A stretch of 64,000 nt of DNA from a virus. Every line of letters begins with the position of its first letter. Within the stretch, counting starts at the first letter, position 1. The translations under genes and the position numbers were made by a program. The DNA lies in the IMG/VR virus record IMGVR_UViG_3300045988_178038, positions 1 to 64,000 of that record. The stretch is one strand, 5' to 3'. The notes under the pieces are model-generated. The model ran no database searches, was not told where the DNA came from, and saw only the letters and a list, made by a program, of their open reading frames with translations. Below, piece after piece: positions 1 through 45,536 of the stretch.

Positions 1-2
1 AA

Positions 3-110
3 ACTTCAAATGAGAAAACTTTAAGATTTGCTCCACCTAAAAATGGACAAATTAAAGGTATTTCATTTGCAAAAGATTATGAAGTTGAGGAGGTGCTTAG
101 TAGGATGTGA
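3..110 (+). CDS. 3-prime end of an ORF truncated by the window edge (hypothetical)
   Basis: Only open frame from position 3; ends ...EVEEVLSRM then TGA at 108-110; no function assignable. Confidence 0.25.
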   Translation, partial: TSNEKTLRFAPPKNGQIKGISFAKDYEVEEVLSRM

Positions 111-132
111 AAACATATTTGAAACAATCATG

Positions 133-165
133 ATGTCGTAGGTTCAAGTCCTTCTACTCCCGCCA
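133..165 (+). other. orphan tRNA 3-prime half (T arm, acceptor 3-prime strand, CCA)
   Basis: GTAGG-TTCAAGT-CCTTC T arm (138-154), TACTCCC, G, CCA; no matching 5-prime acceptor strand GGGAGTA in the upstream 130 nt. Confidence 0.3.
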
Positions 166-168
166 TAT

Positions 169-255
169 GGGTCAGTACAGTGTAATTGGTATCACCCCTG
201 ACTGTAAATCAGGTGCTTAATGCGGTTGTTAGTTCAAGTCTAACCTGGCCCACCA
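169..255 (+). tRNA. tRNA-Tyr (anticodon GTA), long variable arm, encoded CCA
   Basis: Hand-folded cloverleaf: acceptor GGGTCAG/CTGGCCC (one G-T), anticodon stem CCTGA/TCAGG, loop CTGTAAA, T arm GTTAG-TTCAAGT-CTAAC, A + CCA. Confidence 0.85.
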
Positions 256-533
256 AATGATAGCGAGTAGTGTGAGTAGAAAAGATAAGAACGAAATAGT
301 ACCTTGTATGGTGGATAAACCTATTACTCACTTATTGAATCTATTGGAGTCACACACGGCTCCGCTTGCTTATCATTAACAACTATAAAGGAATGCTACA
401 TCCTGTTAATAGTATTAGCGTACTGTTGACGAAATAAAAGAGTAGTGTGGTAAGGAACACACCGGGAGTGGTTCTAAGGTCGTAAAAGCGGCTACAGTTG
501 AGTGGTAAACTAGTCTCAACAACTAAATTATAT
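256..533 (+). ncRNA. unassigned structured spacer between tRNAs (candidate ncRNA)
   Basis: No ORF; closing helix 256-267/365-377 (12 bp, one bulge), inner helices 272-278/325-331 and 346-349/360-363, further hairpins up to 533. Confidence 0.2.
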
Positions 534-602
534 CCTCTTTTAGTGTAGTGGTAGCACACTCCCCGTCAAGGGAGAAGAACGGGTTCGAGACCGTGCGGAG
601 GA
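534..602 (+). tRNA. aberrant tRNA-like element, Asp(GTC)-like (possible pseudo-tRNA)
   Basis: Good D arm GTGT-AGTGGTA-GCAC and acceptor CCTCTTT/GCGGAGG (6/7), but anticodon stem CTCCC/GGGAG encloses only 6 nt (CGTCAA) and the T arm is ACGG-GTTCGAGA-CCGT (4 bp, 8-nt loop); no CCA. Confidence 0.4.
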
Positions 603-777
603 CGGCTTGACACAGCCGTAGTGTTATCTCTGGTATACAAAGCAATCATCTTCGAAGGCCCTAGATTGTGAGGAGAAACAGTCCCTTGGGTTCTCCATTG
701 CATACATCCCTAGCGGTTGTTATGTTGAGACCGATGGCGCGACGGTCGTTTATAATATCGCGCCATTTGTCTAAAAT

Positions 778-852
778 GCGGGTGTAGTATAATGGTTATT
801 ATGTCTGCCTTCCAAGCAGAAGATGGGGCTTCGATTGCCCTCACTCGCTCCA
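778..852 (+). tRNA. tRNA-Gly (anticodon TCC), encoded CCA
   Basis: Acceptor GCGGGTG/CACTCGC, anticodon stem TCTGC/GCAGA with loop CTTCCAA, T arm GGGGC-TTCGATT-GCCCT, T + CCA. Confidence 0.85.
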
Positions 853-936
853 CCGCCCCATGGGAAGTTTGCCTCCAATAAGTCTCATGACTACTACTAG
901 ATTGCACTAGTTGACTGAATAAAGGTGGTTTTATAT

Positions 937-1013
937 GCACTTGTAGCTCAGTTGGTAGTAGCAATTGCCTTTTAAGCAATGGGTCGGGCATTCGAGTTGC
1001 CCCAAGTGCACCA
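937..1013 (+). tRNA. tRNA-Lys (anticodon TTT), encoded CCA
   Basis: Acceptor GCACTTG/CAAGTGC, anticodon stem ATTGC/GCAAT with loop CTTTTAA, T arm GGGCA-TTCGAGT-TGCCC, A + CCA. Confidence 0.85.
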
Positions 1014-1093
1014 TTTTATTTGGAATCAATAGCTTGTCCACCTTTGGGCGACCCGTAATAGCCGGACTTTTGAAAATTTCTTCTCGTAAATGT

Positions 1094-1122
1094 TTGAAAT
1101 TTTTCTGATTTCTTGATATAAT
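1094..1122 (+). promoter_or_regulatory. class A promoter (TTGAAA-17-TATAAT + conserved downstream box)
   Basis: TTGAAA 1094-1099, 17-bp spacer, TATAAT 1117-1122, followed by ATTTACAGAAAGTGAGG. Confidence 0.6.
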
Positions 1123-1148
1123 ATTTACAGAAAGTGAGGGAAACGAAA

Positions 1149-1322
1149 ATGGAAACTGAAACTCCGTGGAAGCCCGAAGTAAAGAAGATGTCTCCCGAAC
1201 AACTTGAGAAGTGGACGGCGCTCCGTAAAAAGTGTCAAGTCTTTCCTTCTCGAAAACCATATTCGCGCAAAATCAAACATAAAAATCGAGAAAAAGAAGA
1301 AAAAGAAGAAAACGAAATTTGA
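1149..1322 (+). CDS. hypothetical small basic protein (57 aa)
   Basis: ORF track 1134..1322; start moved to ATG 1149 behind GTGAGGG; lysine/glutamate rich; sits inside the tRNA island. Confidence 0.35.
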   Translation: METETPWKPEVKKMSPEQLEKWTALRKKCQVFPSRKPYSRKIKHKNREKEEKEENEI

Positions 1323-1347
1323 AAAACTTCTAAAATTTTGGTATAAT
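1319..1347 (+). promoter_or_regulatory. class A promoter
   Basis: TTGAAA 1319-1324, 17 bp, TATAAT 1342-1347, then ATTTATACAAGATGAGA. Confidence 0.6.
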
Positions 1348-1362
1348 ATTTATACAAGATGA

Positions 1363-1404
1363 GAGAGAGGAACTGGTCTTTTCCTTTCTACCAGTTCCTC
1401 TCTC
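1363..1404 (+). other. perfect 15-bp hairpin at the 5-prime end of the tRNA-Ile transcript
   Basis: GAGAGAGGAACTGGT (1363-1377) pairs with ACCAGTTCCTCTCTC (1390-1404), 12-nt loop, no U-run after it. Confidence 0.5.
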
Positions 1405-1436
1405 AGAAAGTCCTAATGTGGCTTACTTGAAAACTA

Positions 1437-1509
1437 TCCGATGTAGTTCAACTGGTTAGAATACCGCATTGATAAAGCGGAGCTTTCGGTTCAAATCCGG
1501 CCTTCGGGT
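1437..1509 (+). tRNA. tRNA-Ile (anticodon GAT), no encoded CCA
   Basis: Acceptor TCCGATG/CTTCGGG (6/7), D arm GTTC-AACTGGTTA-GAAT, anticodon loop TTGATAA (A-A mismatch closing), T arm TTCGG-TTCAAAT-CCGGC. Confidence 0.6.
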
Positions 1510-1903
1510 AGTTGGTAAGCAGTCCCAAGCCTGCATAAACACAGAGGGAGACTAATAGCGGTATTACAGTGGCCAATGTAGTATCCAAAATTTCGAGACA
1601 GGCAAGTCTTCAGGCAGTAATGTCTGATGAAACAACGACGGCGAAGGAGTCGCGACCTTCGGAGGAGCCGAGATAAACCTACGGGGACCGCCATCGGAGA
1701 AAAGGAATTTGTTAGTCAAATCAGTTTCGTGGTTCTGAAACTCAAAATCACCTCGCGCAGTCCCTATGGCGCAATATAAATAGGATAGGCGCTATCTGAC
1801 ATGGCGTGACGTTCAGCAGTTTCGATGCGTGGGCTTACCTATAAAACTCATGCTGGGTCTTTGGAGCCTTTTACCTCCTGTGTGAAACAAAAGGCTCGTA
1901 TAT
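1510..1903 (+). ncRNA. ORF-free structured region (candidate large ncRNA, 5-prime part)
   Basis: No credible ORF, visibly GC-richer than the flanking coding DNA, local helices such as CGAAGG/CCTTCG 1642-1647/1656-1661. Confidence 0.3.
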
Positions 1904-1980
1904 GGCACTGTAATCCAATTGGCAGAGATAGCGGATTCAAAATCCGTAAAGTGTGGATTCGAATTCCACCAGTGCTACCA
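1904..1980 (+). tRNA. tRNA with anticodon CAA (Leu by anticodon) but a short 5-nt variable arm, encoded CCA
   Basis: Acceptor GGCACTG/CAGTGCT, anticodon stem GCGGA/TCCGT with loop TTCAAAA, variable AAAGT, T arm GTGGA-TTCGAAT-TCCAC, A + CCA. Confidence 0.7.
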
Positions 1981-2066
1981 GAAATTCGTGTCCCGCTAAG
2001 CTCTATAATGATTGTGGCGAGGCTAAGGCGTTGGCAGATAAGGGGCAACCGCACGAATTAGAATAT

Positions 2067-2140
2067 TGCGCGGTCATCTAATGGTAGGATAGAAGGCTCA
2101 TTACCTTCCAATGCTGATTCGACTTCAGCCTGCGCACCCA
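2067..2140 (+). tRNA. tRNA-Met (anticodon CAT; initiator/elongator/Ile2 not distinguishable), encoded CCA
   Basis: Acceptor TGCGCGG/CTGCGCA, D arm ATCT-AATGGTA-GGAT, anticodon stem GAAGG/CCTTC with loop CTCATTA, T arm GCTGA-TTCGACT-TCAGC, C + CCA. Confidence 0.8.
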
Positions 2141-2935
2141 TTCGCCTAGGCGAAACTCTCGTAGAGGGTGGATTTTACGGTTCAACTACCACCGGCTTCC
2201 GCGCACGGGCGGCGATCGCTGATCGCCAGGGCTGACAACGAAGATATGTGGCTTTGTCATTTGTAGAGAGTATAATAAATAAAAACGAAAGTAAACCGTT
2301 ATTTGTTCCTTGAAAATAAAATATCTTAGAACTCGATGATAAACATTCTGTGACTAGGAATGTCGAGGCGTTTTGGAAAAGGGCGGCAGACAACGAACAA
2401 GGATACTTGTGGATACTGGCCGGCGTGCGTGACGTGAGTTGCGTGCCAGAGAGGATGAACTCCCAACCCTAAGAAACGGCATCGAGACTAACGCAAGTAA
2501 AGGTAGGACGCGCGTCGCTGGCGTAATAGAGGCTTTCAAGATAATTGAGAGCTGAATCCTAATCTCCCTTAGTTGGTGACTGTGGGTGAATCATTTGATT
2601 AGGAAATAACCACAAGCCAGTTTGTTGTGAAGCGAAGAAATTCGTGTATAAGACGTGTATGTGGCCTCTGAGTAGCCAAAGACAAGCACAATAATGATTA
2701 TTGATAATAAAAATCAAGAACTTGCTGAATGGCTGGTGAAAGGTTCTGGTAATCAATCCAGAAGAGACTACGCGCACGAAGGTGCGGCTATGGGAAGTAT
2801 GCGCGGGACGCTGCGTATGCTCAGCCCCATGGTACTCTTGACTGAATATACTTGAAGTTAGTTTTCGGTAGGTTGAAGAACCCATAGATATTTTATTTTC
2901 AGGGAACAAATCCCTTTCGACGGATAGGAACGTCG
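2141..2935 (+). ncRNA. ORF-free, hairpin-dense 0.8 kb region (candidate large ncRNA, 3-prime part)
   Basis: Helices 2141-2154, 2167-2171/2189-2193, 2211-2217/2221-2227, 2422-2428/2441-2447, 2558-2564/2597-2603, 2744-2749/2758-2763, 2773-2777/2782-2786, 2901-2905/2911-2915, 2916-2922/2931-2937; track ORFs here are antisense, RBS-less and low-complexity. Confidence 0.3.
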
Positions 2936-2965
2936 AAAATTTTGAATGATAGGAGAGGAACTATT

Positions 2966-3256
2966 ATGGCAAGATATTATAGCGACATTACAAACAAGCT
3001 CTACGATAGCATGGATGACCTTGAAGAGGCTGAAAAGAAGATTATCGCAAAACGAGAAGAGAAAAGAGTGGCAGAGCAGAAGCGTGCCGACGAACGAAAA
3101 GTTCGCGCGCAGGAGATTGATGAGTTACAGAAGACTTACGTAGACGCCCGAAAGGCGTATACAGAAGCTCTTGAGAAATTCTGTAATGATTACGGAACCT
3201 TTCATACTTCCATTTCTTCTGATAATCTTTTCGATTTTCTTTGGAGTTGGATGTAA
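2966..3256 (+). CDS. hypothetical coiled-coil protein (96 aa)
   Basis: ATG 2966 behind AGGAGAGG; charged heptad-like sequence; followed by a terminator. Confidence 0.55.
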   Translation: MARYYSDITNKLYDSMDDLEEAEKKIIAKREEKRVAEQKRADERKVRAQEIDELQKTYVDARKAYTEALEKFCNDYGTFHTSISSDNLFDFLWSWM

Positions 3257-3263
3257 TAGAAAC

Positions 3264-3291
3264 GGCGCCCTTGATTGGGCGCTTTTCTTTT
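3264..3291 (+). terminator. intrinsic terminator
   Basis: GCGCCC/GGGCGC stem (3265-3270/3277-3282) followed by TTTTCTTTT. Confidence 0.7.
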
Positions 3292-3321
3292 ATCAAAATA
3301 GAAACAGAAAGGAGAGAACAA

Positions 3322-3522
3322 ATGACACTTTATTTTGACAATGGGTATGAGCCGAGGCGGTCTATTGGTCATCCTAGCACTAAGGAAGATGCATATCAAC
3401 TGGTTTACAAGTTTTTAGAGGAGCACAACTATAAAGCTCCTTATACAAGAGAATGGACAAATGATATCAATGAGACTTGGATCGATGTTGGAAGCCACAC
3501 AGAATTCTTTATTTGGTGCTAA
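3322..3522 (+). CDS. hypothetical protein (66 aa)
   Basis: ATG 3322 behind AAAGGAGAG; the upstream part of track ORF 3241..3522 overlaps the terminator. Confidence 0.5.
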   Translation: MTLYFDNGYEPRRSIGHPSTKEDAYQLVYKFLEEHNYKAPYTREWTNDINETWIDVGSHTEFFIWC

Positions 3523-3594
3523 TTTATCAAGGTTATTTGGCGCCCGACTACTTAGAGATAGAAAGGAAAATATATCCCAGAAAAGGAGAATAGA

Positions 3595-4233
3595 ATGAAG
3601 AAAAATGAAGATATCGGACTGCTACCGCTAGTCCAAATTCCAGAAAGCGCGAATTATTCACTTCCCGATGATAATCTCCTGTCGTTCTACAATGATTTGG
3701 AAGAACGATTACTTTGGGTGACAGATGGAATTGATAGCTGTTCCTTGAATATTATTCATTATATTTTGAAGTGGAACCGTGAAGATAAGGGAATTGAACT
3801 TTCTGCGCGGAAGCCTATTCGTCTTCTCATTTTTAGTCCCGGTGGAGAGCTTGATGTTTTTACTGCCATTGGCAATATTATTCGTCTTTCAAAAACCCCT
3901 GTTATTGGTATCAATATTTCGTGTGCTTACAGCGCCGCGGCTATGATACTTCTAATGTGTCATAAGAGATATGCTTTGAGCAGTGATGTCTCTGTTCTTT
4001 TCCATCAAGGAAGTTGTTCTGGCATTCAGGGAACTTATGATCAGATTGCTAATTTTATGAAAGAATATGATGAGCAGGTTTCTCGTCTTTCTCAGGTTAT
4101 TCTCGATAGAACTTTATTTACAAAAGAAGAAGTAGATGAAAAGATGAAGAGCGATTGGTACGTATCCGCGCGCGAAGGTGTCGAACGTGGTGTATATGAT
4201 GGTATTATTTCTTCTATTGACGAACTAATCTGA
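3595..4233 (+). CDS. ClpP-like serine protease (S14 family homolog)
   Basis: IFSPGGELDVFTAIGNII...CAYSAAAMILLMC...VLFHQGS matches the ClpP pattern INSPGG...AASMGA...MIHQP; RBS AAAAGGAG. Confidence 0.7.
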   Translation: MKKNEDIGLLPLVQIPESANYSLPDDNLLSFYNDLEERLLWVTDGIDSCSLNIIHYILKWNREDKGIELSARKPIRLLIFSPGGELDVFTAIGNIIRLSKTPVIGINISCAYSAAAMILLMCHKRYALSSDVSVLFHQGSCSGIQGTYDQIANFMKEYDEQVSRLSQVILDRTLFTKEEVDEKMKSDWYVSAREGVERGVYDGIISSIDELI

Positions 4234-4243
4234 GGAGGTCTAA

Positions 4244-4459
4244 ATGGACTATACAGGAATTAGAGAAGTCTCGCTTACCCAAGAAGAATTAGCTCAATTT
4301 TATCAAGGAGATTTTCCAATTCTCAACTTATTGGAGAATCAATATGTTTTTCTTCGTGATGAGACCGGTAAGATTGTGGATAAGTTCTTCTGGCGCGCGG
4401 GACATTTAGAGAGAGAGTTCCTTTTATCATTTTTTCTTCTGATTTCGTTGGTAAGATAA
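4244..4459 (+). CDS. N-terminal fragment of the PhoH-like protein (frame-disrupted)
   Basis: RBS GAGGAGG; the frame ends in junk after the (GA)5 tract at 4408-4417, while the other frame continues as VPFIIFSSDFVGKIKPRNPEQECAFHLL into the ATPase. Confidence 0.45.
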   Translation: MDYTGIREVSLTQEELAQFYQGDFPILNLLENQYVFLRDETGKIVDKFFWRAGHLEREFLLSFFLLISLVR

Positions 4460-4497
4460 AACCGCGTAATCCAGAGCAAGAATGCGCTTTTCATCTT

Positions 4498-5076
4498 TTG
4501 CATGACCAAGATATTAGGGTGAAGTTGATTACAGGTCGATTTGGTTCTGGTAAGTCTATGAGCATGATAGCGCAAGCCGTTGAAGCACTAGATAAAGGCA
4601 TTATTGATAAGGTTGTTTACGTTCGTAATAATATTACCGTGCGTGATATGGCAGAACTAGGTTTTTTGCCAGGAGGAGAGGTTGACAAGCTCCTTCCATA
4701 TTTGATGCAATTTGCTGACCATGTTGGCGGGAAAGAAGCTCTTATCAGAATGATTTCCGAAGAAAAACTTGAGCCAATTCATCTAGGCTATTTGCGCGGG
4801 CGTGATATTCGTAATTCAATTATCTATGTCACAGAGGCGCAAAATCTTACGGCAGACCATATCAAGTTACTTTTGGGACGCGTTGGTGAGGGTTCCTATC
4901 TTTATCTTGATGGAGATTTTCATGCTCAGATTGACCGTTCAGTTTTTGAACGCTCTCCTGGCTTGAAACGAATGATTGAAGTCTTGGCCGGTAATAAGTT
5001 GTTTGGTTATGTAAATTTGGTAAAGTCAGAACGCTCTGAAGTTTCCGCTTTGGCTGACTTATTAGATGAAAATTGA
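4498..5076 (+). CDS. phoH: PhoH-like ATPase (C-terminal part as given by the ORF track)
   Basis: Walker A GRFGSGKS, LGFLPGG, YLRGRD, TEAQNLT, LDGDFHAQID are the classic PhoH motifs; this frame is open back to 4384. Confidence 0.75.
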   Translation: MHDQDIRVKLITGRFGSGKSMSMIAQAVEALDKGIIDKVVYVRNNITVRDMAELGFLPGGEVDKLLPYLMQFADHVGGKEALIRMISEEKLEPIHLGYLRGRDIRNSIIYVTEAQNLTADHIKLLLGRVGEGSYLYLDGDFHAQIDRSVFERSPGLKRMIEVLAGNKLFGYVNLVKSERSEVSALADLLDEN

Positions 5077-5122
5077 AAAACCAGCACCGGACTTCCTGCG
5101 GCGCTGTTTTCATATATCGTAG

Positions 5123-5152
5123 GGAGAGGGCGTGAGTCCTCTCCTTATTTTA
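5123..5152 (+). terminator. intrinsic terminator
   Basis: GGAGAGG/CCTCTCC stem (5123-5129/5138-5144) followed by TTATTTTA. Confidence 0.65.
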
Positions 5153-5165
5153 TGGAGTGAGATAA

Positions 5166-6848
5166 ATGGCATATCAATCTGTCTATTGGAAAAAATATGA
5201 TAGGTCAAAGATGTTTTCTCAAATGGATGTTTTTTATAATTATCTTGGAGAAGACCCCGCGCGGGCTTCACTGGCAGTTTTGAAAGGAATGGCAGAAGAC
5301 AGTTTCAATCGCCACTTGAATCAGATAAGAGAGATCTCAAAAAATGTTGAACCTTATAGACGTATTGCTGAGGCAGAAAAGGAAAAGGAATTAGCTCTTT
5401 TGCGCGAGGTCTTTGGGCAAGACCTTCATATAAATCTTCAAGACCAAAATGATGTAAAGTCGTTGATTGAGGCATTAAATAGTGTTTTGAATATAAAAGA
5501 TGTATATAATAGGAATGTCCGAACTTTGGAGCTTTCTAGGGGTGGTATGAAAAGCGTCGTATCTTTCTTCCCAACTTATTTTCTCCAAGTTTGGAATGAA
5601 CAGTGGGAAGATATCTATTTAGCGACTTGTGACATGTTCGCGCAAGGAAAAATTACATTGGAAGAGGCCTTGAAAAAAGAGGTCAATAAAAGAATTGATA
5701 ATATGACAATTGAAGCAATAGAGAGAATGTTGTCCGCGCAAGCTGAGATGAAAGGTATGCGCGAAGACGATAAATATAATAAAGCTTACCAAAAATTGCT
5801 TGACGCAATTAGGACTCTTCCAAGGTATAGAAATGAAATCATCGAAAGAATTCGTTCAATTTATCAGCTAGACAAGCTAAGCGACAGTATTACAGAGCAA
5901 ATCAAAGGGGAAGGGCACATAACAAAGAAACAAATAGAAAAGAAACTAAAAAATTCTGCTAAAAAACCAGTTGAAATTCAATCAGCTTCGCGCGGAGGAT
6001 TGACTTTAGAGGCTATTGAGAAAATGGTTTTCAATATGATTGGAGACAGAATAGAAGCCAATGGTGGGATGGCTAGAACCATTCATACTGGTAAGATTGG
6101 TAATATGAAAGCAGATAATATTATGACAATTGGCCTTGCTCCTTCCATCATTGATGAATGGCTTGATGATATTATGGAGATTTCTGGTTCATCGCGCGCA
6201 GATAATATAGAGAGAATTCGACGTCTTGGAGAATTGACACAAAATGCAGATAAAGGCTTTATAATTTATTCTAGTGATAAAAATTATACTTTGAATCAAA
6301 GGTTTCGTGAGCAATTTGGCTTTTCTGCCGGATCGGCATTGTCTGCTCAATCATTCTATGATGTGACGCGCAATGTAAATAAGAACGCGCGCACTTTTAC
6401 TGGTCTGCTGGTCAATACAATTGGCGGAGCTGTAATGGATACCGAAGGAACACGTGACCGCTTAGCAGAGATTGTTGCAGAGGATATTGCCGTAATGCTT
6501 TTTGATGATTATCAGACAATTGGTGATTTTAGAGGGAAAACAGGAGCTCGCGCCATTCATATAATGAATTTAGGTAATATAATGATACCTCTTTCTGTTT
6601 TTTTGACGATGTTCGCCAACGCAGTCGAGCAAGCGGAAAGTGAACCTTCTGATTTTGTGAGGGTCGCTATTATGACACCTGAAATTGAATTCAAAACATA
6701 TTCAGAGCAACTGGAATGGCAAGCTAGAGAAAGGGCAACTTCTAGCGAAGCATGGAGCTTTCAGCGGGAGCAAGCTCTCCAGAAGACTCGGATTTCGGTT
6801 CGTTTCTTCCGAGAATTCCGTTCTTTCATCACCACGCTCGGTCAGTAA
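5166..6848 (+). CDS. hypothetical protein (560 aa)
   Basis: Long ORF with a GGAG RBS; I recognise no motif. Confidence 0.6.
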   Translation: MAYQSVYWKKYDRSKMFSQMDVFYNYLGEDPARASLAVLKGMAEDSFNRHLNQIREISKNVEPYRRIAEAEKEKELALLREVFGQDLHINLQDQNDVKSLIEALNSVLNIKDVYNRNVRTLELSRGGMKSVVSFFPTYFLQVWNEQWEDIYLATCDMFAQGKITLEEALKKEVNKRIDNMTIEAIERMLSAQAEMKGMREDDKYNKAYQKLLDAIRTLPRYRNEIIERIRSIYQLDKLSDSITEQIKGEGHITKKQIEKKLKNSAKKPVEIQSASRGGLTLEAIEKMVFNMIGDRIEANGGMARTIHTGKIGNMKADNIMTIGLAPSIIDEWLDDIMEISGSSRADNIERIRRLGELTQNADKGFIIYSSDKNYTLNQRFREQFGFSAGSALSAQSFYDVTRNVNKNARTFTGLLVNTIGGAVMDTEGTRDRLAEIVAEDIAVMLFDDYQTIGDFRGKTGARAIHIMNLGNIMIPLSVFLTMFANAVEQAESEPSDFVRVAIMTPEIEFKTYSEQLEWQARERATSSEAWSFQREQALQKTRISVRFFREFRSFITTLGQ

Positions 6849-6849
6849 T

Positions 6850-6878
6850 TTGAAAATCAAAAAAAATTATGATATACT
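6850..6878 (+). promoter_or_regulatory. class A promoter
   Basis: TTGAAA 6850-6855, 17 bp, TATACT 6873-6878, then ATTTATAGAAAGTAGAA. Confidence 0.55.
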
Positions 6879-6910
6879 ATTTATAGAAAGTAGAAAGGAA
6901 AGAGAATATT

Positions 6911-39196: not shown

Positions 39197-40525
39197 ATGA
39201 TTTTGGGCGCAAAGGAGAAAATGAAAATGCCTAAACGAAATCGCTTACAGCTAGACTTCTCGCTTTCTTCGGCAGAAGAACGCCAAGTCTTTCTCACGAA
39301 ATATCTTGAAACCTTGGCGTTTACGCCAACCTCATCCGAACTAGAGCTAATGGCCGACTATGTTCTATGGGGAGATAAAAATTCTAACGAAGCCATTGAG
39401 CTAGAAACCTTCTGGAAGAAGAAAGAAAAAAAAGTCGAGTCTCTTGATGAATTACGAGAGAATCCTACTTTCCTCGAAGCACGTCTTGTTTCCCCTTACA
39501 TCACTCCAAAAACTCAAAAAACGCGTCGAGTCTTTTCTCGTGAAGAAGCTCGCTCTTTCGCTTCCCCCTATGTGCTCGCGCACCTTGAAGACCTTTGGCG
39601 CGAAATTGATACACTTGACCTAGAAACTCGCTTCTATGAAAACTTTATTAGCCGTCAAACCAAGCCTCCCCGCAGTCAGCTCCTCGAACGTTTTACTTCG
39701 GCGGAAGCCGAAGAAATCCGCGCGCACGCCCAATCTCTAACTGAATATGCCTACTTGAAGAAGCGAAAGCTTCTAGTTGAAAAACGCTCTGAACAATACC
39801 CATGGCGTGATACCTACACGACTCCTCTAGTCCAACGCCATACCCCTACTATTGCCCAAGACCCCGTACCTCCTCCGCTCCTAAACGCAGATATTCCCAT
39901 TCTTCCACTCGGAAGCCTTCCAATTCAACTAGTCCCAAAAATTTTCCCTTCCTCCGGTGAGTTTCCAACTCCCGGCACTCTAACCCCAGACGAAGAAAAG
40001 CTTCTCTCCAAGACTATCTGGCGCGAACCCTCAAATGCGCCGAACTCATTTGATTTTCGAGACCCTGCGCACCTCGCTTCTTTTATCTCTCTTTACTCTG
40101 AGCTTTTGCCCGACCAAAATTCTGATGAAGGCCTCCAAGCCCTCTTTTCCACTTTTACCTATTATCAAAAACTCGCACGACTTTCGCCTCTCTACCTTGA
40201 TATATTGCGCGCGAAGGTCGCACACGAAACCAACACTAAAATTGTAGAGAAGATAGCATCAAAATACGGCAAATCCTATGGCGAAAATTATATTTCAACT
40301 CTTTATCGCCAAAAGATATTGCCGAAAATAGCCGCAGCGGCGTCCGCGCACTATCAAGTTACTTCGGAGTTATTTTTCCCCGAAAACTTCAAAACGTGTA
40401 AGGATTGCGCGCGCACGCTACTTAGGACTCCAGATTACTTTATGCGCAAAGCAAAATCTTCAGATGGCTTTTCACCCCGTTGTAAAGCTTGCGAGAAAGC
40501 GTTGCGCGAAAGGAGGAAAAATTGA
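39197..40525 (+). CDS. hypothetical protein with a C-terminal zinc ribbon (442 aa; start could be 39221 or 39227)
   Basis: First gene of the module; CKDCARTLL...FSPRCKACEKA at the C-terminus. Confidence 0.6.
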   Translation: MILGAKEKMKMPKRNRLQLDFSLSSAEERQVFLTKYLETLAFTPTSSELELMADYVLWGDKNSNEAIELETFWKKKEKKVESLDELRENPTFLEARLVSPYITPKTQKTRRVFSREEARSFASPYVLAHLEDLWREIDTLDLETRFYENFISRQTKPPRSQLLERFTSAEAEEIRAHAQSLTEYAYLKKRKLLVEKRSEQYPWRDTYTTPLVQRHTPTIAQDPVPPPLLNADIPILPLGSLPIQLVPKIFPSSGEFPTPGTLTPDEEKLLSKTIWREPSNAPNSFDFRDPAHLASFISLYSELLPDQNSDEGLQALFSTFTYYQKLARLSPLYLDILRAKVAHETNTKIVEKIASKYGKSYGENYISTLYRQKILPKIAAAASAHYQVTSELFFPENFKTCKDCARTLLRTPDYFMRKAKSSDGFSPRCKACEKALRERRKN

Positions 40526-40797: not shown

Positions 40798-41783
40798 TTC
40801 CTCAAATTCCTCGCCCCAAACGTTCATTTCTCTCTAAACGGTGCGCGCGATGTCAGGTAGAACAACCGGAAGAGGATTTCGCTTTCACCCACAGTAAGTT
40901 CTATCCAGACCACCATCTTCCACTTTGTAATTCATGCATTACTTTGATGTTGCGCGAACACGACTTTGATTGGGGCTTTATTGATAAGTTGTGCCAATGG
41001 GCCGATATTCCTTTTATTGTAAAAGAATGGGAGAGATTGCGCGAACTCAATTCTCCTGATAGTGTATGGGCAGCTTACTCTAAAGTTTTTGCTTCGCAAG
41101 ATTATGAGGGCCTTGGGTGGGATACTTATTTCAAGCAATATCAAGAACTAAAAGCAGTTGGTCTAGTGGAAGAAGAGATTCCGCTTTTGAAGGAGAAGCA
41201 CTTCGATGAGCTGCGCGCGCGATGGGGCGCGAACTATGATGAAGAAGCTCTCGATTATCTTGAAAACCTTTACCAAGGACTTTTGATGTCTCAAAATGTA
41301 GTCGGCGCGCTTCAAATTGACCAAGCTCAAAAACTTTGTAAAGTTTCGTATGAGATTGATAGTCGCATTCGCGCGGGAGACAAAGATGTCGATAAATTCA
41401 TGGCAACCTATGACAAGCTAGTCAAAACCGCTGAGTTCACACCTAAAAACATAAAGAATGCACGCGACTTTGATAGTTTTGGCGAATTGGCACTTTGGCT
41501 TGAAAAGCGCGGAAATCAAAACAAATTCTACGATGGCGCGACACGTGATGTTATCGACGAGACTATCAAAAATATCCAAGCTTGGAACCAACGTCTCTAT
41601 GTAAATGAAAGTAGTCTAAGTGAAGAAATTACCGCGCGTCTCCAAGCTCTCAAAAATGTCCAAGAAAGCGAAAATTTCTATGAGACAGAGCAAAAAGATT
41701 TCGACGCAGACCTATATGAAGCAGAAGTTTTCAAGGATGAGGATAATGAAGACTTTGAAACAGAAGGAGAGATGGGCATATGA
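40788..41783 (+). CDS. hypothetical protein directly upstream of terL (possible small terminase subunit; unproven)
   Basis: Position only; N-terminal zinc ribbon CARCQ...CNSC; RBS GAGGAGG. Confidence 0.55.
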   Translation: MPVIPQIPRPKRSFLSKRCARCQVEQPEEDFAFTHSKFYPDHHLPLCNSCITLMLREHDFDWGFIDKLCQWADIPFIVKEWERLRELNSPDSVWAAYSKVFASQDYEGLGWDTYFKQYQELKAVGLVEEEIPLLKEKHFDELRARWGANYDEEALDYLENLYQGLLMSQNVVGALQIDQAQKLCKVSYEIDSRIRAGDKDVDKFMATYDKLVKTAEFTPKNIKNARDFDSFGELALWLEKRGNQNKFYDGATRDVIDETIKNIQAWNQRLYVNESSLSEEITARLQALKNVQESENFYETEQKDFDADLYEAEVFKDEDNEDFETEGEMGI

Positions 41784-42315
41784 GTAATGTGATTCAATTG
41801 CGCCCGCCCACTTCTCCTTTTCTCCAAGATAATCGTATCTATCGAGATGGCATTTTACTTGAAAAAGGTGTTGAAGTTACTGAAGACTTTTTATTGCGGA
41901 ATGAAAAGTTTTTTGCGGATTTGACGCAGCTTTATACTGTATACCCTGACGTCTACTTAGACACAATCCGACCAGAAAATAGCCAGTTTGATCTATTTCC
42001 GTATCAGCGATGCTTTTTGAGGTCTCTGATGCGTTATAATCAAGTTTATATAACAGCAACACGCGCGGCCTCTAAATCTTTTCTTTCTGTTCTAGGGATG
42101 TTTTTACAATGCGTTTTTATCCCCGGTCACAAATGTTCACTCATTGCGCCGGTTAAAACACAAGGCGTAAAAATTTTCAAAGAAAAGATAGCTGAGATAC
42201 TAAAGATTTGGCCGCTTCTTGAAAAAGAACTCGAAGTTTTTATGGGCAAGCCTCATATCAACTTATCAAAAGATGTTGGTGAAGCCTATTTCAAAAATAG
42301 TTCGCTATTTACCGT
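41780..42315 (+). CDS. terL: terminase large subunit, exon 1 (3-prime boundary approximate)
   Basis: LFPYQRCFL...ITATRAASKS Walker A-like ATPase N-terminus; the frame runs into a stop 45 nt into the intron. Confidence 0.7.
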
Positions 42316-42541
42316 CGAAGGGGCGAATTTGTTGCCCTCCCCTATAGTAATATACGGGTAATAAACTTTTCTAATTGCTGGAACACCCTAACGTAAAGAC
42401 GAGGGCAATCAGCAGCTAAGTCTTCTTTTGAAGAAAAGTTCAACGACTATCTCGTAAAGAGAGTAGAGAAATCGAAAAGGAAAGCACCTCGATGAGGTGA
42501 AGATATAGTCTAATCTTTATGGAGACATAAAGTAGTAAATG
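42316..42541 (+). mobile_element. group I intron 1 in terL, ORF-less (5-prime end somewhere in 42316-42334)
   Basis: Conserved core CAGCAGCTAAGTC (42410-42422), GTTCAACGACTAT (42438-42450), AAGATATAGTC (42500-42510) = the Q, R and S elements of group I introns (compare Tetrahymena GCAGCCAAGUCC, GUUCACAGACUAAA, AAGAUAUAGUC); ends ...GTAAATG. Confidence 0.7.
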
Positions 42542-43247
42542 AACAGATTCCTCACGCGGTTTGCGACGCCACTCAATTTTCCTCGACGAGACCCGCGATG
42601 CTGACGAAGACGCAGTTAGTGAAATTATTATTCCTCAATTGAATGTTTCCCGTCGCAACGCACTTGGTCTTGTAAATCCATACGAAGCTGTAAATCAGCA
42701 AATGATTAGTGGCACTTCTGCGGGCACTAAATCATCCTATGCTTACGCGTTACTTTGTGAGACAATGATACAGGCTATAATTGATCCCGCGCACGCTTTT
42801 GTGATGGGACTTGATTATAGATTGCCCGCGATGCATGGCCTGGTAGACAAAGCCTTCGTCGAACGTCAAAAATTCTCATCCTCTTACAATGAAGCTACTT
42901 TCGCAGCAGAGTTTTTAGGAATTTGGGAAGGCGGAAGTAGTGAAGCTTGGTATGATTTTGAGAAACTTTCTAAATACAGAAAGAAAAAAAATCCAGAGTG
43001 GCATCAAAAATATAAAGACGATCCAAATGTTTTCTACTTACTGTCGATAGATATTGGTAGAATTCACGATAGTACAGTAGCAACAGTATTTCGAGTCAAT
43101 AAAGTAAATGGCAAATACTATTCAACAGTAGTAAATATCTATGTTCTAGGGCGTCAAGCGGAAACTAAAACTTTCTCTCAACAGGCAATTGATATAAAAC
43201 TCCTAATTGAGAGATATAATCCACGTGAAGTCCTTATTGACACTAAT
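42542..43247 (+). CDS. terL: terminase large subunit, exon 2 (boundaries approximate)
   Basis: In-frame SSRGLRRHSIFLDETRDADE (Walker B) begins right after the intron; the track ORF continues into intron 2 and stops at 43379. Confidence 0.7.
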
Positions 43248-43484
43248 GGCTTAGTAGAACTTAGGTCATTCAAAATCCCTCTAACTGCTGGGAAACCTCT
43301 TTTGAGGCAATCAGCAACGAAGTCGCGTTCGCGCGAAACGCTCAACGACCAATCGCAAGATGTAGGGGCAGCGCCCTGAAATGGGGGATACTTTTTGTAA
43401 AGTAAAGATATGGTCTTCTCTACATAGAGATATGTAGCAGTTCATAAGAGAACGCATACGCTTGCGAAACGTATGGAAAATAAG
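43248..43484 (+). mobile_element. group I intron 2 in terL, ORF-less (boundaries within about 10 nt)
   Basis: Diverged core CAATCAGCAACGAAGTC (43308-43324), GCTCAACGACC (43340-43350), AAGATATGGTC (43405-43415); flanking exons join as ...LIDTN / (I)GLGIADEM, a typical terminase nuclease motif. Confidence 0.6.
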
Positions 43485-44021
43485 ATAGGTTTAGGTATTG
43501 CTGACGAAATGATAAAAACTCATATTGATGGCCGAGGGCGCGAACTTCCTGCTTACGGCTTTTTCAATAATGACGATTATAAAAAAATTCAACCAAAAAA
43601 TTGTATTCCAATTCTATATTCAATGAAAGCAAATGGCCCATTGAAATCAAAAATCAATGGTAACGCTTATGCTCGCCTAAATAGTGGTCTTGTTCGTTTT
43701 TTGATTTCTGAACAAGAGGCGCGCGCTTCACTTCTTGCCACAAAAAAAGGTCAGAAGATGTCTATGAAAGAACGTGCGGAACGGCTTATCCCGCACGAAA
43801 ATACGACAAAACTTTTCAATGAAATGGGGAACCTTCGTGCGAAGCAAACGGGCAATGATATTGTCCTTGAACCAATCAATACTCGGTTCCCAGATGATAA
43901 ATACTATTCATTTGCTTATGGCCTTTGGCGCATCAAAGAAATAGAGGAAGAAGAACAAAAACGACAACGGAAACGAGGCCTCAATAAACGAAAACTCGTA
44001 TTCTTTACAGGAGGAACCTAA
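43485..44021 (+). CDS. terL: terminase large subunit, exon 3 (nuclease domain)
   Basis: GLGIADEMIKTHIDGRG...; ends 1 nt before the portal gene. Confidence 0.65.
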   Translation: MGLGIADEMIKTHIDGRGRELPAYGFFNNDDYKKIQPKNCIPILYSMKANGPLKSKINGNAYARLNSGLVRFLISEQEARASLLATKKGQKMSMKERAERLIPHENTTKLFNEMGNLRAKQTGNDIVLEPINTRFPDDKYYSFAYGLWRIKEIEEEEQKRQRKRGLNKRKLVFFTGGT

Positions 44022-45536
44022 TTGGAAAATCAACAAAACAAAGTGAAAACCGCGCGCGATATTTCCTCCTTTTCCCGCGCGCGAGAACAAATGGTAGCCA
44101 AAAGCCGAGAGGTCTATGGAGACTATGATTATCTATCTGGCGCGCGAGCTTCTCGAAGATTGCGCAAATATTCCTTGAAGGAGATAGATGAAATTATTAG
44201 TTCTGGTTCTTTAGCAGAACAACGAATTTTATCTCGAAATTATTTTTCGCTGGATGGGCTTTATAAGAGAATTCTTTTGTATTATGCTACCTTGATGAAA
44301 GGGGCCGGATTGCTGGCGCCAGTCCCGGCGTATGGCAAACAACTCTCCGCCGACCACATTCAAAAACGTTATTATAATGCTTTGAATTATATAGACAAGC
44401 TTCATCTGGAGGAATTCGAGACAAAAGTGGCATTGCGCGCACTTATTGACGGATGCTATTATGGCGTCATTCAAAGGCTTGATAAGAATGATTTGGTTCT
44501 TCTTGATTTGCCCGCGCAGTTCGCTCGTTCATGCTATAAGGATATATATGGCAGAGATATAATTGAATTTGATGTTACTTATTTCTCTCAAATTATTGAT
44601 AAAGAAGAGAGAGAAGAAGAATTATCTCTTTTCCCATCAGTAATTAGTAAGTATTATCGTCGATATGCAAAAGGTAGGGAAACTTGCTCGTGGGTAAAGG
44701 TGCCTTCCGAGTTAGGAGTTTGTTTCTCTTTTGTCGAAGATGGTGCTCCGCTCTTTCTTTCTACAATTCCCGCAACAATTCAATATGACGAAGCAGTAGA
44801 TACCGAGAGAGAAAGAGATTTGGACGAAATTAGAAAAATTCTAATTCAAAAAATCCCTCACCTTCAAGATGGTTCACTTCTATTTGAACCGGAAGAAGCG
44901 GTTGAAATGCACGCTGGTACGGTCGAGATGATGGCTGGAAATAAGAATGTCTCAGTATTGACCACATATGCTGATGTTGATTCAATTGTTTCTAAAACGT
45001 CTTCAGATGCAGTTTCTAATAATTTGGAAAAGATGCTTCAAAATGTATATGCTGAAGCTAGTGTCAGCGCACAATTATTCTCGCCAACAGGAGCACAGGC
45101 TCTTGACAATTCTATTCGTAATGATATGTCCTTTATGATGATACTTATGAATAAAATTGCCCGCTTTGTTACTGATTTAGTGAATGGACTTTTTGGAAAT
45201 ACGAATATCTCTTTCAAATATACCATTCTGCCAATTACTTATTACAATCAATCTGAATTTATTACTGATTCCATGAAGCTCGCGCAAGCTGGATATAGCT
45301 ATCTATTGCCATCTATCGCGATTGGCGTTGGACAAAGAGAACTTCTTGGAATAAAGGAATTAGAAAATGAAGCGCTAGGTCTTCGTGATAAACTAATTCC
45401 TCTTGCTTCTTCTTATACTGAGTCAGCTGGAAATGACCCTGGACGTCCCACAAAGACAACAGAACAAAAAGCTCCTTCAACAATTCAGAAAGAAGAATCA
45501 ATCAATAAGCAAGGAGGCGTGAAGACCGATGAATAA
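44022..45536 (+). CDS. portal protein (by position and size)
   Basis: 504 aa, immediately after terL; TTG start behind CAGGAGG. Confidence 0.6.
   Translation: MENQQNKVKTARDISSFSRAREQMVAKSREVYGDYDYLSGARASRRLRKYSLKEIDEIISSGSLAEQRILSRNYFSLDGLYKRILLYYATLMKGAGLLAPVPAYGKQLSADHIQKRYYNALNYIDKLHLEEFETKVALRALIDGCYYGVIQRLDKNDLVLLDLPAQFARSCYKDIYGRDIIEFDVTYFSQIIDKEEREEELSLFPSVISKYYRRYAKGRETCSWVKVPSELGVCFSFVEDGAPLFLSTIPATIQYDEAVDTERERDLDEIRKILIQKIPHLQDGSLLFEPEEAVEMHAGTVEMMAGNKNVSVLTTYADVDSIVSKTSSDAVSNNLEKMLQNVYAEASVSAQLFSPTGAQALDNSIRNDMSFMMILMNKIARFVTDLVNGLFGNTNISFKYTILPITYYNQSEFITDSMKLAQAGYSYLLPSIAIGVGQRELLGIKELENEALGLRDKLIPLASSYTESAGNDPGRPTKTTEQKAPSTIQKEESINKQGGVKTDE

Follow-up and report, generated by a model that had tools for sequence, protein, structure and literature searches.

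The window analysed here, 64,000 nucleotides (nt) of DNA from IMG/VR virus record IMGVR_UViG_3300045988_178038 (positions 1 to 64,000), carries near its 5′ end a stretch, 1319-2945, that is the distal part of a tRNA array in a tailed phage of ~100-120 kb from rumen or gut metagenomes. A first-pass annotation had proposed that 1510-2935, between tRNA-Ile and the first protein gene, is one giant structured RNA of the GOLLD or ROOL class wrapped around two tRNAs. We conclude instead, with a probability of about 0.8, that the region is a string of independent RNA genes and not one RNA: a predicted twister ribozyme that carries a tRNA-Ile in its stem P3, an unclassified structured RNA of ~350 nt, further tRNAs and a ROOL RNA. 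The parts can be identified and delimited, they retain conserved base pairing, and relatives of the phage exchange them as modules. About 15 related contigs of 90-121 kb (individual contigs and loci carry L numbers below) were recovered from IMG/VR and metagenome assemblies through the ClpP-like gene at 3595-4233; they are 88-97% identical across most of the region and strongly mosaic. BLAST of window positions 1-3300 against GenBank phages returned tRNA-sized matches alone and no close cultured relative.

The ribozyme was missed by the first-pass annotation: the start of the 394-nt block it had drawn ahead of tRNA-Leu is half a twister, and the other half lies upstream of tRNA-Ile, outside 1510-2935. 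The first clue was a sub-threshold Rfam twister-P1 match (29 bits, 1489-1552). The RF03160 model fails to span the 92-nt insert and puts the 5′ half on the tRNA T-arm, an alignment that we rejected, two of its four P2 pairs being broken. Upstream of tRNA-Ile, 1410-1426 read GUCC-U^AA-UGUG-GC-UUAC: P1a is A1409-C1412, C1413 has no partner, cleavage is predicted between U1414 and A1415, with A1416 next, P2a is UGUG 1417-1420, G1421-C1422 is the T2 partner, and P3a is UUAC 1423-1426. Downstream of the tRNA, P3b is GUAA 1515-1518, and the sequence GCA-GUCCCAAGCC-UGC-AUAAA-CACA-GAGGG-AGAC (1519-1552) agrees with the RF03160 consensus position for position: P4 (1519-1521/1532-1534) closes the loop GUCCCAAGCC (1522-1531) and is followed by AUAAA 1535-1539, P2b (CACA 1540-1543), GAGGG 1544-1548, which pairs with C1524-C1526 as pseudoknot T1, and P1b 1550-1553. 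Because the 5′ half (1409-1426) precedes the tRNA and the 3′ half (1515-1553) follows it, tRNA-Ile lies inside P3; judged by its sequence, the element is a type-P1 twister with a complete tRNA inside that stem. Minimum free energy (MFE) and centroid folds show a long continuous P3/extension/acceptor helix, plus P2. A circularly permuted type-P3 twister with its 5′ half at UUACAGUGGCC (1564-1574) was considered and rejected: this segment forms the loop of a hairpin in which L005 has four compensatory changes, and L005 does not keep the GCC.

A pattern scan of IMG/VR with the twister 3′ half returned ordinary complete twisters in unrelated phage contigs, which read N-UAAUGUGGCC-(P3)-GUUCCAAGCC-...-UAAACACAGAGGA-N′. 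A covariance model, R1, built solely from 10 tRNA-less phage twisters and run unfiltered over the whole 64-kb window, gave a single significant match, 1410-1552 (47.0 bits, E ~1e-12), which covers the full model with the 92 nt as a local P3 insert; the runner-up in the window scored 11.7 bits. On relatives, R1 returned exactly one split match in each of seven (46.9-54.8 bits) and none in L011.

Comparative evidence from the relatives' sequences leads us to treat the ribozyme fold as established. In 12 distinct sequences and over 50 pairs, 88.9% of cells are paired, and 14 of the 50 pairs have changed on both sides, against 5.3 ± 1.7 in 500 shuffles (0/500 reached the observed count) and 1-2 with slid partners; five P1 pairs and two P4 pairs are among those changed on both sides. 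P1 flanks the tRNA in three wholly different, self-consistent versions (AGUC/GACU, AUGGAUU/AAUCCAU and UAUG/CAUA), P4 varies from GCA/UGC to GCG/CGC and ACG/CGU, P3 from UUAC/GUAA to UUAU/AUAA, and the extension helix from AACUA/UAGUU to AGCCA/UGGCU. In T1, C1524-G1548 becomes U-A in three sequences, and sibling twisters have UCAC/GUGA or UCUC/GAGA. P2 (UGUG/CACA) is invariant in all 12 sequences, and T2 (G1421-C1422 with G1529-C1530) can pair and is likewise invariant. The core (U1414^A1415 A1416, G1421 C1422, 1522-1531, 1536-1539 and 1544-1548) does not vary in the 12 sequences save at the co-changing T1 positions 1524 and 1548. The compensation in P1, P4, P3 and T1 therefore points to selection acting on the ribozyme fold.

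Several features of the element tell against an active, tRNA-carrying ribozyme. P1 has just four pairs in the window and a C-A mismatch at its innermost position, adjoining the predicted cut. The discriminator and the first bases of the leader are paired in the extension helix, which is expected to hinder RNase P and RNase Z. RF03160 scores 29.2 bits here against a gathering score of 67.2; every homologue is from the same phage clade, so that the sequences are related and the shuffle counts cannot be read as a probability; and the embedded tRNA is degenerate in some relatives (T-arm lost in L005, non-canonical T-loops in L003 and L013, a 6-nt anticodon loop in L030). The short mismatched P1, the awkward helix, the low score and the single clade would also suit an inactive relic: a former leader ribozyme whose P3 loop received a tRNA gene, whose halves have simply lingered and whose RNA relies solely on protein nucleases and RNase P for processing. 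We consider a relic improbable, since the core positions that are invariant or nearly so in sibling twisters are intact in all 12 sequences, P1 has been rebuilt three times with full compensation across the tRNA, P4, P3 and T1 are compensated too, and the ribozyme of L005 is still intact where its tRNA has decayed. The RF03160 threshold was failed because P3 carries a 92-nt tRNA-bearing insert; ordinary phage twisters with the same core score 35.6-60.8 bits (E 3e-4 to 1e-11), likewise below 67.2. Run at the gathering threshold, Rfam returned no match for eight loci, seven of them with canonical twisters, and E-value mode was required. The split element shows that ribozymes with large inserts escape covariance-model scans made at curated thresholds. 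Solved twister structures have P3 stacked on the far end of the P1-T1-P2-T2 column; this stem is optional, and P1 is dispensable for cleavage (PMC6154101), so that a distal insert and a weak P1 should be tolerable. We infer that the tRNA-carrying twister is catalytic.

The embedded tRNA-Ile(GAU), which ARAGORN calls at 1436-1510, folds into a cloverleaf with canonical D and T loops (GG in the former, UUC in the latter), a 7-nt anticodon loop, U33 and A37, and has no encoded CCA. It is irregular at three points, U1-G72, U6-U67 and the first T-stem pair, which is mismatched. The extension helix (1432-1436/1509-1513) includes the discriminator base and is continuous with the 7-bp acceptor stem (1436/1437 to 1509/1510); it and the anticodon stem both show compensatory changes. 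The embedded tRNA of L029 has AAU. In every relative with a variant embedded tRNA the ribozyme core is intact, and from this comparison the tRNA may be partly a structural arm or module rather than a tRNA for translation.

The core resembles the type-P1 twister (RF03160; PMC6154101) in its U-A cleavage dinucleotide, GC, GUCCCAAGCC loop, UAAA and GAGGG, in P1, P2, P4, pseudoknot T1 and a possible T2, in its termini in P1, and in belonging to a family in which P3 is optional; it is near-identical to the cores of ordinary twisters in other phage contigs. It differs in P3, which here is no hairpin: after a 4-bp stem and a junction, a 5-bp helix passes into an entire tRNA of 73 nt (92-nt insert). 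Full-text literature searches found no description of a natural twister that carries a tRNA. Scans for the same core with an 85-115-nt P3 insert returned, outside the clade, only L046 (in IMG/VR) and L056 (in one genome per bacterial species), neither insert being a tRNA; P4 length and core sequence were fixed in the pattern, so that variants are missed and the count is a lower bound. The nearest precedent is the theta ribozymes, minimal relatives of the hepatitis delta virus (HDV) ribozyme that adjoin phage tRNA 3′ ends and are proposed to process tRNA transcripts without host nucleases (Kienbeck et al. 2024, PMC10879173). They too are a small self-cleaving ribozyme class physically coupled to a tRNA gene in tailed phages of gut and rumen, but they belong to a different class, sit directly 3′ of the tRNA and cut its 3′ end, whereas the twister surrounds its tRNA and has its predicted cut 22 nt upstream of the 5′ end, so that it would make no mature tRNA end by itself. 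GOLLD with tRNAs in its linker is likewise a phage RNA in a tRNA island with a tRNA nested in a larger conserved fold; here, in contrast, there is no sequence or structure match to GOLLD (E ≤ 1), whose host RNA is a cage-forming molecule of >800 nt as against a ribozyme core of 52 nt.

Other twisters turned up beside conserved elements of their own. In three unrelated contigs (L034 2588-2680; L039 3986-4080; L042, minus strand, downstream of its twister) a canonical twister is followed by a shared GC-rich element, GAGCGCGU...GGCCCUC...GAGGGC...GGCGCGUAAGU, so that the ribozyme again stands 5′ of a conserved non-coding element. Two short phage contigs have several twister-P1 matches, five in L037 and three in L040, the latter with a type III hammerhead as well (47.9 bits against a gathering score of 48.5).

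The RNA at 1554-1903 we regard, on comparative grounds, as a real structured RNA. A new RNA class was one of the options left by the first-pass annotation, and here it holds: the 394-nt block contains structured RNA outside any described family, and 1554-1903 has no Rfam family at E ≤ 1. It exists as type A (window-like) and type B (L013, L036 and L029), which share conserved blocks and are alignable yet have no BLAST link in the 5′ domain. RNAalifold on 17 sequences, with the terminal hairpin placed by hand, proposes 60 pairs, of which 25 have changed on both sides, against 10.7 ± 2.2 in shuffles (0/500) and 2-6 with slid partners; the share of paired cells is 94.9%. Double changes affect the helices 1636-1642/1649-1654 (GC to AU), 1729-1734/1746-1751 and 1828-1833/1847-1852, at most six sequences being changed on both sides. 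Three helices predicted from type A alone persist in type B through double changes, and a third, alternative 3′ module has rebuilt versions of both 3′ hairpins, 1828-1852 and 1864-1897. RNAalifold also offered long-range pairings that would tie the twister's 3′ half to the distal part of the block (CACAGAGGG with CCUCCUGUG); relatives with the alternative 3′ module do not keep them, and they were discarded. In type A, GACUAAU 1550-1556 is shared by P1b and an alternative helix to GUUAGUC 1717-1723 (P1b GACU with 1720-1723), an alternative pairing that may, by its sequence, be a rearrangement after cleavage.

The opposing view is that 1554-1903 is a decayed remnant of a tRNA, intron or gene, or a neutral spacer, with its structure an artefact of close relatedness. 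The single-sequence fold is no better than shuffles (z -1.0), the RNA matches no Rfam family and is confined to one clade, and its structure was both derived and counted on one alignment, which inflates the contrast with the controls. Nonetheless we think this quite unlikely: types A and B are too diverged for BLAST in the 5′ domain and still keep their helices by changes on both sides, helices predicted in type A alone are retained in type B, and slid controls, which preserve relatedness, give 2-6 pairs against 25. Rfam finds no tRNA-like or intron match. The "tRNA/intron graveyard" that the first-pass annotation had entertained is not supported, there being no tRNA-like matches in 1511-1903 and its helices being kept through compensatory changes. 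An nhmmer profile of the RNA found this clade alone among ~100 fetched loci, and an exact 23-mer of the 394-nt block matched IMG/VR within the same clade only. A degenerate two-gap pattern made from blocks common to both types gave 28 new loci, all set aside, none being homologous by the nhmmer profile. Among known RNAs, drum RNA (RF02958) is similar in being a conserved structured RNA among phage tRNA genes; there is no similarity between the two otherwise, 1554-1903 being about three times longer and found in this clade alone. Relatives of the phage have drum RNA itself higher in the same tRNA array, in a part that lies just upstream of the window's first position: L001 at 1944-2071 and, in the corresponding place, at least 11 further distinct relatives (53-57 bits; gathering score 43). 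A 95-nt tRNA-Ile(UAU) follows it.

The class proposed for the giant RNA was half right: ROOL is present, GOLLD is absent and the tRNAs are not wrapped. With Infernal and Rfam, RF03087 matches at 282 bits over model positions 1-574 of 574, whereas GOLLD is matched neither in the window when the gathering threshold is applied nor in 1-3100 at E ≤ 1. Positions 1-3100 at E ≤ 1 likewise gave no group I or II intron, tmRNA, raiA, HDV-like or other small ribozyme besides the twister. The ROOL closing helix (2301-2326/2886-2911) is a 26-nt inverted repeat with 96% complementarity, and ROOL stands at the same place in all 15 related contigs scanned that reach the position (247-286 bits). With the Rfam consensus pairs, a structure independent of these sequences, mapped on 10 clade sequences of 82-98% identity, pairing holds in 87.4% of cells, and 21 pairs have changed on both sides, against 7.5 ± 1.8 in shuffles (0/500) and 0-3 with slid partners. 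An internal linker at ~2690-2725 is AT-rich and hypervariable, alignment columns ~400-460 ranging from ~30 to 80 nt between invariant flanks. Cryo-electron microscopy of the rumen ROOL env-120 showed an octameric RNA-only nanocage with a disordered linker inside (Kretsch et al. 2025, PMC12286853), and the hypervariable linker matches the disordered one of that structure. By homology with env-120, this ROOL would fold as a flat monomer and assemble into an RNA-only octameric cage with the variable linker inside.

This RNA adds a phage example to an established class (RF03087; Weinberg et al. 2017, PMC5737381; PMC12286853) whose structure is already solved. It shares with that class its multi-junction architecture, a long closing helix, a hypervariable linker and a place in a phage tRNA array; tRNA(CAU) lies 160 nt upstream and the window encodes portal and terminase. 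The source is alike too, cow rumen having yielded the first ROOL and at least one close relative of the phage being labelled human-gut metagenome. Nothing essential differs; some clade members have a promoter-like cassette of their own ahead of ROOL, and in others ROOL comes 55 nt after tRNA(CAU). The cassette is part of the 160-nt spacer that follows tRNA(CAU) in the window and about half of the relatives. Its promoter-like block (TTGTCA 2254-2259, TATAAT 2271-2276) would start transcription near 2283, ~18 nt before ROOL. The hexamers have a non-canonical 11-nt spacing, the element is missing in some relatives and the promoter scan made no call, all of which counts against a dedicated promoter. 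The TATAAT-containing block is, on the other hand, kept in the distant L011 (ClpP 42% identical), where a different RNA comes next, and this survival suggests from sequence that 2254-2276 is part of a promoter-and-leader cassette. L005, L006, L007, L009 and L023 have the entire spacer swapped for 55 nt without TATAAT, directly after another tRNA(CAU), and because of these five relatives ROOL can evidently be produced by read-through from the tRNA operon, as suggested earlier by Weinberg et al. (PMC5737381). Beyond ROOL, the hairpin 2915-2938 is conserved, with one compensatory pair (U-A to C-G in four sequences), and by its sequence 2915-2945 looks like a terminator.

The modularity of these parts tells against a single RNA. 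Mosaic breakpoints separate them among the relatives, L030 having a 350-nt RNA 99%, a ROOL 82% and a ClpP 54% identical to those of the window. At 13 ROOL loci from other phage clades, tRNAs are present in the fetched DNA of 11 and the 350-nt RNA in none; the twister model, run on 12 of the 13 contigs, found a twister in 0/12. Because the parts recombine freely and other ROOL loci lack the twister and the 350-nt RNA, we see them as tRNA-island neighbours and not as one machine. A single GOLLD/ROOL-like RNA of ~1.4 kb with two embedded tRNAs would account for a region that is continuous, non-coding and GC-enriched with all its features on one strand; GOLLD is known with tRNAs in its linker (PMC12286853), and the parts may well be co-transcribed. 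It is very unlikely all the same, since the ROOL model is limited to 2308-2902 and the RNA is closed on itself by its 26-bp helix, GOLLD is not matched, relatives swap the segments between 1903 and 2300 (so that their pre-ROOL cassettes differ) and mix versions of the 394-nt block and ROOL, other clades have ROOL without the upstream elements, and no long-range pairing of 1511-1903 with 2141-2935 was found. Neither the 394-nt nor the 795-nt block of the first-pass annotation coincides in its limits with a real element; its ROOL lead is correct for 611 of 1,426 nt, and that part is ordinary.

The stretch was rightly described as ORF-free (open reading frame, ORF) and GC-enriched, in a phage setting adjoining tRNAs, and the tRNA positions were correct (Ile(GAU) 1436-1510, Leu(CAA) 1904-1980 and Met(CAU) 2067-2140). 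The GC content of 1511-2935 is 0.465 (parts 0.476, 0.477, 0.487 and 0.440), against 0.382 in the genes at 2966-9000 and 0.398 in the whole window. From tRNA-Ile to the ATG of the first gene at 2966 there are only short ORFs, on both strands, and the four longest of 1511-1903 are broken by a frameshift or stop in most of nine relatives (88-97% identical); for these reasons we take 1511-2935 to be non-coding. Small encoded proteins are most improbable, for although such ORFs are mechanically present (50 amino acids at 1627-1779, 116 at 2559-2909 on the minus strand), those in 1511-1903 are disrupted in these relatives, ribosome-binding sites are lacking, as had been remarked before, and the minus-strand ORF lies inside the ROOL match, where substitutions track base pairing. 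The density of hairpins needs a qualification. Single-sequence MFE is not above chance (z-scores against shuffles of -1.0 for 1511-1903, -1.1 for 2141-2307, -0.8 for 1405-1557 and -0.7 for 1981-2066), but comparison shows conserved structure in 1405-1557, 1554-1903 and 2301-2938.

Table 1. Elements of the distal tRNA array and the basis of each assignment
Feature	Positions	Strand	Basis
Promoter-like site, sigma-70 type (TTGAAA, 17 nt, TATAAT, TG extension)	1319-1347	+	Consensus match alone, 11/12 positions
Leader hairpin, perfect 15-bp stem, just upstream of predicted cleavage site	1363-1404	+	Inverted repeat I3, 100% complementary
Twister 5′ half	1409-1426	+	Model R1 match and RF03160 consensus layout
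Twister P3 insert: junction, 5-bp extension helix, tRNA-Ile(GAU)	1427-1514	+	ARAGORN; Rfam tRNA 46.3 bits (gathering score 29)
Twister 3′ half	1515-1553	+	RF03160 layout, model R1, compensatory changes
Structured RNA, ~350 nt, outside described families	1554-1903	+	Two divergent types; compensatory changes; ORFs broken in relatives
Helices of the structured RNA (i)	1560-1568/1577-1585, 1597-1602/1607-1611, 1636-1642/1649-1654, 1690-1695/1784-1790, 1709-1711/1717-1719	+	Comparative
Helices of the structured RNA (ii)	1729-1734/1746-1751, 1755-1758/1769-1772, 1795-1803/1810-1817, 1828-1833/1847-1852, 1864-1872/1889-1897	+	Comparative
tRNA-Leu(CAA), 77 nt, no long variable arm, encoded CCA	1904-1980	+	ARAGORN; Rfam 57.6 bits
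Spacer, one domain, 9-bp closing stem (8 Watson-Crick, AAUUCGUG with CACGAAUU)	1981-2066 (86 nt)	+	MFE fold, z -0.7, not significant
tRNA, anticodon CAU (Met, or Ile2 if modified)	2067-2140	+	ARAGORN; Rfam 46.7 bits
Conserved spacer	2141-2300	+	Alignment A7: hairpin 2142-2153, conserved block 2157-2200, variable GC-rich hairpin 2201-2230, promoter-like block
ROOL RNA	2301-2911 (Rfam match 2308-2902)	+	RF03087, 282 bits (gathering score 99.1), E 1.4e-63
Terminator-like hairpin, UUUCGACG with CGUCGAAA, then AUUUUGA	2915-2945 (hairpin 2915-2938)	+	Terminator scan

The order of the parts suggests how such a transcript could be made and processed. The strong promoter-like site at 1319-1347, a 73%-identical duplicate of a site at 1094-1122 (direct repeat D1) with a predicted transcript start at ~1354, would begin an RNA with the leader hairpin, whose 3′ arm is conserved among relatives, and then the twister. 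P3 extends through the 5-bp helix into the acceptor stem, so that the ribozyme halves would meet only after the tRNA has been transcribed and its acceptor helix formed. Cleavage between U1414 and A1415 would remove the 5′ leader and leave a 5′-OH end 22 nt upstream of the tRNA, after which RNase P and a 3′ nuclease would free tRNA-Ile. The twister 3′ half would remain joined to the ~350-nt RNA, with the RNase P cut at tRNA-Leu setting its 3′ end; our working guess is that 1554-1903 is a stable phage non-coding RNA (ncRNA) matured by the processing of the flanking tRNAs. tRNA-Leu(CAA) and tRNA-Met(CAU) would come next, and ROOL would be made from its own weak promoter-like element or by read-through, ending at the conserved hairpin.

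Twister ribozymes are abundant in bacteria and phages, and to our knowledge no biological role has been established for them after a decade. A tentative proposal, which we put forward as doubtful, is that the tRNA-carrying twister is a functional device, switched on only by the folding of the tRNA domain, or by a factor that recognises tRNA and binds or processes this domain. It would couple tRNA maturation to removal of the leader and to release or stabilisation of the 350-nt RNA, itself a new ncRNA class working with the phage tRNA/ROOL set. If so, a natural twister would for the first time have an assignable biological task, and a natural ribozyme would for the first time be seen to employ a tRNA as a structural or regulatory arm. 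A twister that clamps a tRNA between co-evolving halves ties a ribozyme to the processing of a tRNA-array transcript in a directly testable way, and it complements the HDV-like theta ribozymes at phage tRNA 3′ ends.

The remaining tRNAs of the array vary within the clade. tRNA-Leu(CAA) has two forms, one of 77-78 nt without the long variable arm (the window, L003 and L006-L009) and one of 85-86 nt with it (L001 at 4318-4403, L002, L004, L005 and L013). The spacer 1981-2066 has no Rfam match (E ≤ 1); it is 98-100% identical in L001, L002 and L013 and is also seen in L036, hence there is no covariation to judge. A CAU tRNA stands ahead of ROOL in most clade members examined, by ARAGORN, Rfam or reading of the sequence; it is uncalled there in L003, L004, L006 and L007, of which L006 and L007 still have CAU-tRNA-like sequence upstream of ROOL.

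Further upstream, a tRNA-Asn that relatives have in full survives in the window as its 3′ part alone (126-169), and 170-252 is an 83-nt Tyr-like tRNA with anticodon GUA and a long variable arm (Rfam 36.7 bits) that ARAGORN missed. A tRNA-like gene at 534-602 scores 26 bits, below the Rfam threshold, and has a 6-nt anticodon loop, CGUCAA; its homologue in L009 and L013 is called 'tRNA-??? (tc)' by ARAGORN, and the twister tRNA of L030 has a similar 6-nt loop, UCUCAA. The promoter-like site 1094-1122 is followed, in the middle of the array, by a Lys/Glu-rich ORF of 57 amino acids (1149-1322) with a plausible ribosome-binding site and a weak match to DUF7230 (E 0.0013). The spacers 253-533 and 603-777 are ORF-poor (GC 0.43-0.49), partly conserved and partly swapped in relatives, with an 18-nt inverted repeat at 725-775, and from their sequence could hold more structured RNAs. 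Together with the RNA at 1554-1903, the long array spacers make phage tRNA islands look like a reservoir of structured RNAs still to be described. In the distant L011, ~2.7 kb at 6230-8600 around four tRNAs has no ORF of 60 or more amino acids. A GC-rich spacer there is 790 nt long, the homologue of 2141-2300 has a different RNA after it, and an ORF for a GIY-YIG homing endonuclease is broken by stop codons; tRNAs are the sole Rfam matches in this part.

The rest of the window is tailed-phage DNA, with a sigma factor (39197-40525) and a portal protein (44022-45536). Between them, 41780-44021 appears to be the gene for the large terminase subunit, in three ORF pieces; what interrupts it are two group I introns, one at 42297-42532 (Rfam 105.9 bits) and the other at 43243-43437 (65.2 bits). 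At 9000-11540, where no tandem repeats were found, GC rises to 0.55-0.62 against a background of 0.38, over the end of ORF 8928-9581 and a 623-amino-acid protein with a tyrosine-phosphatase-family domain (9669-11540); this GC-rich part is possibly a recently acquired segment.

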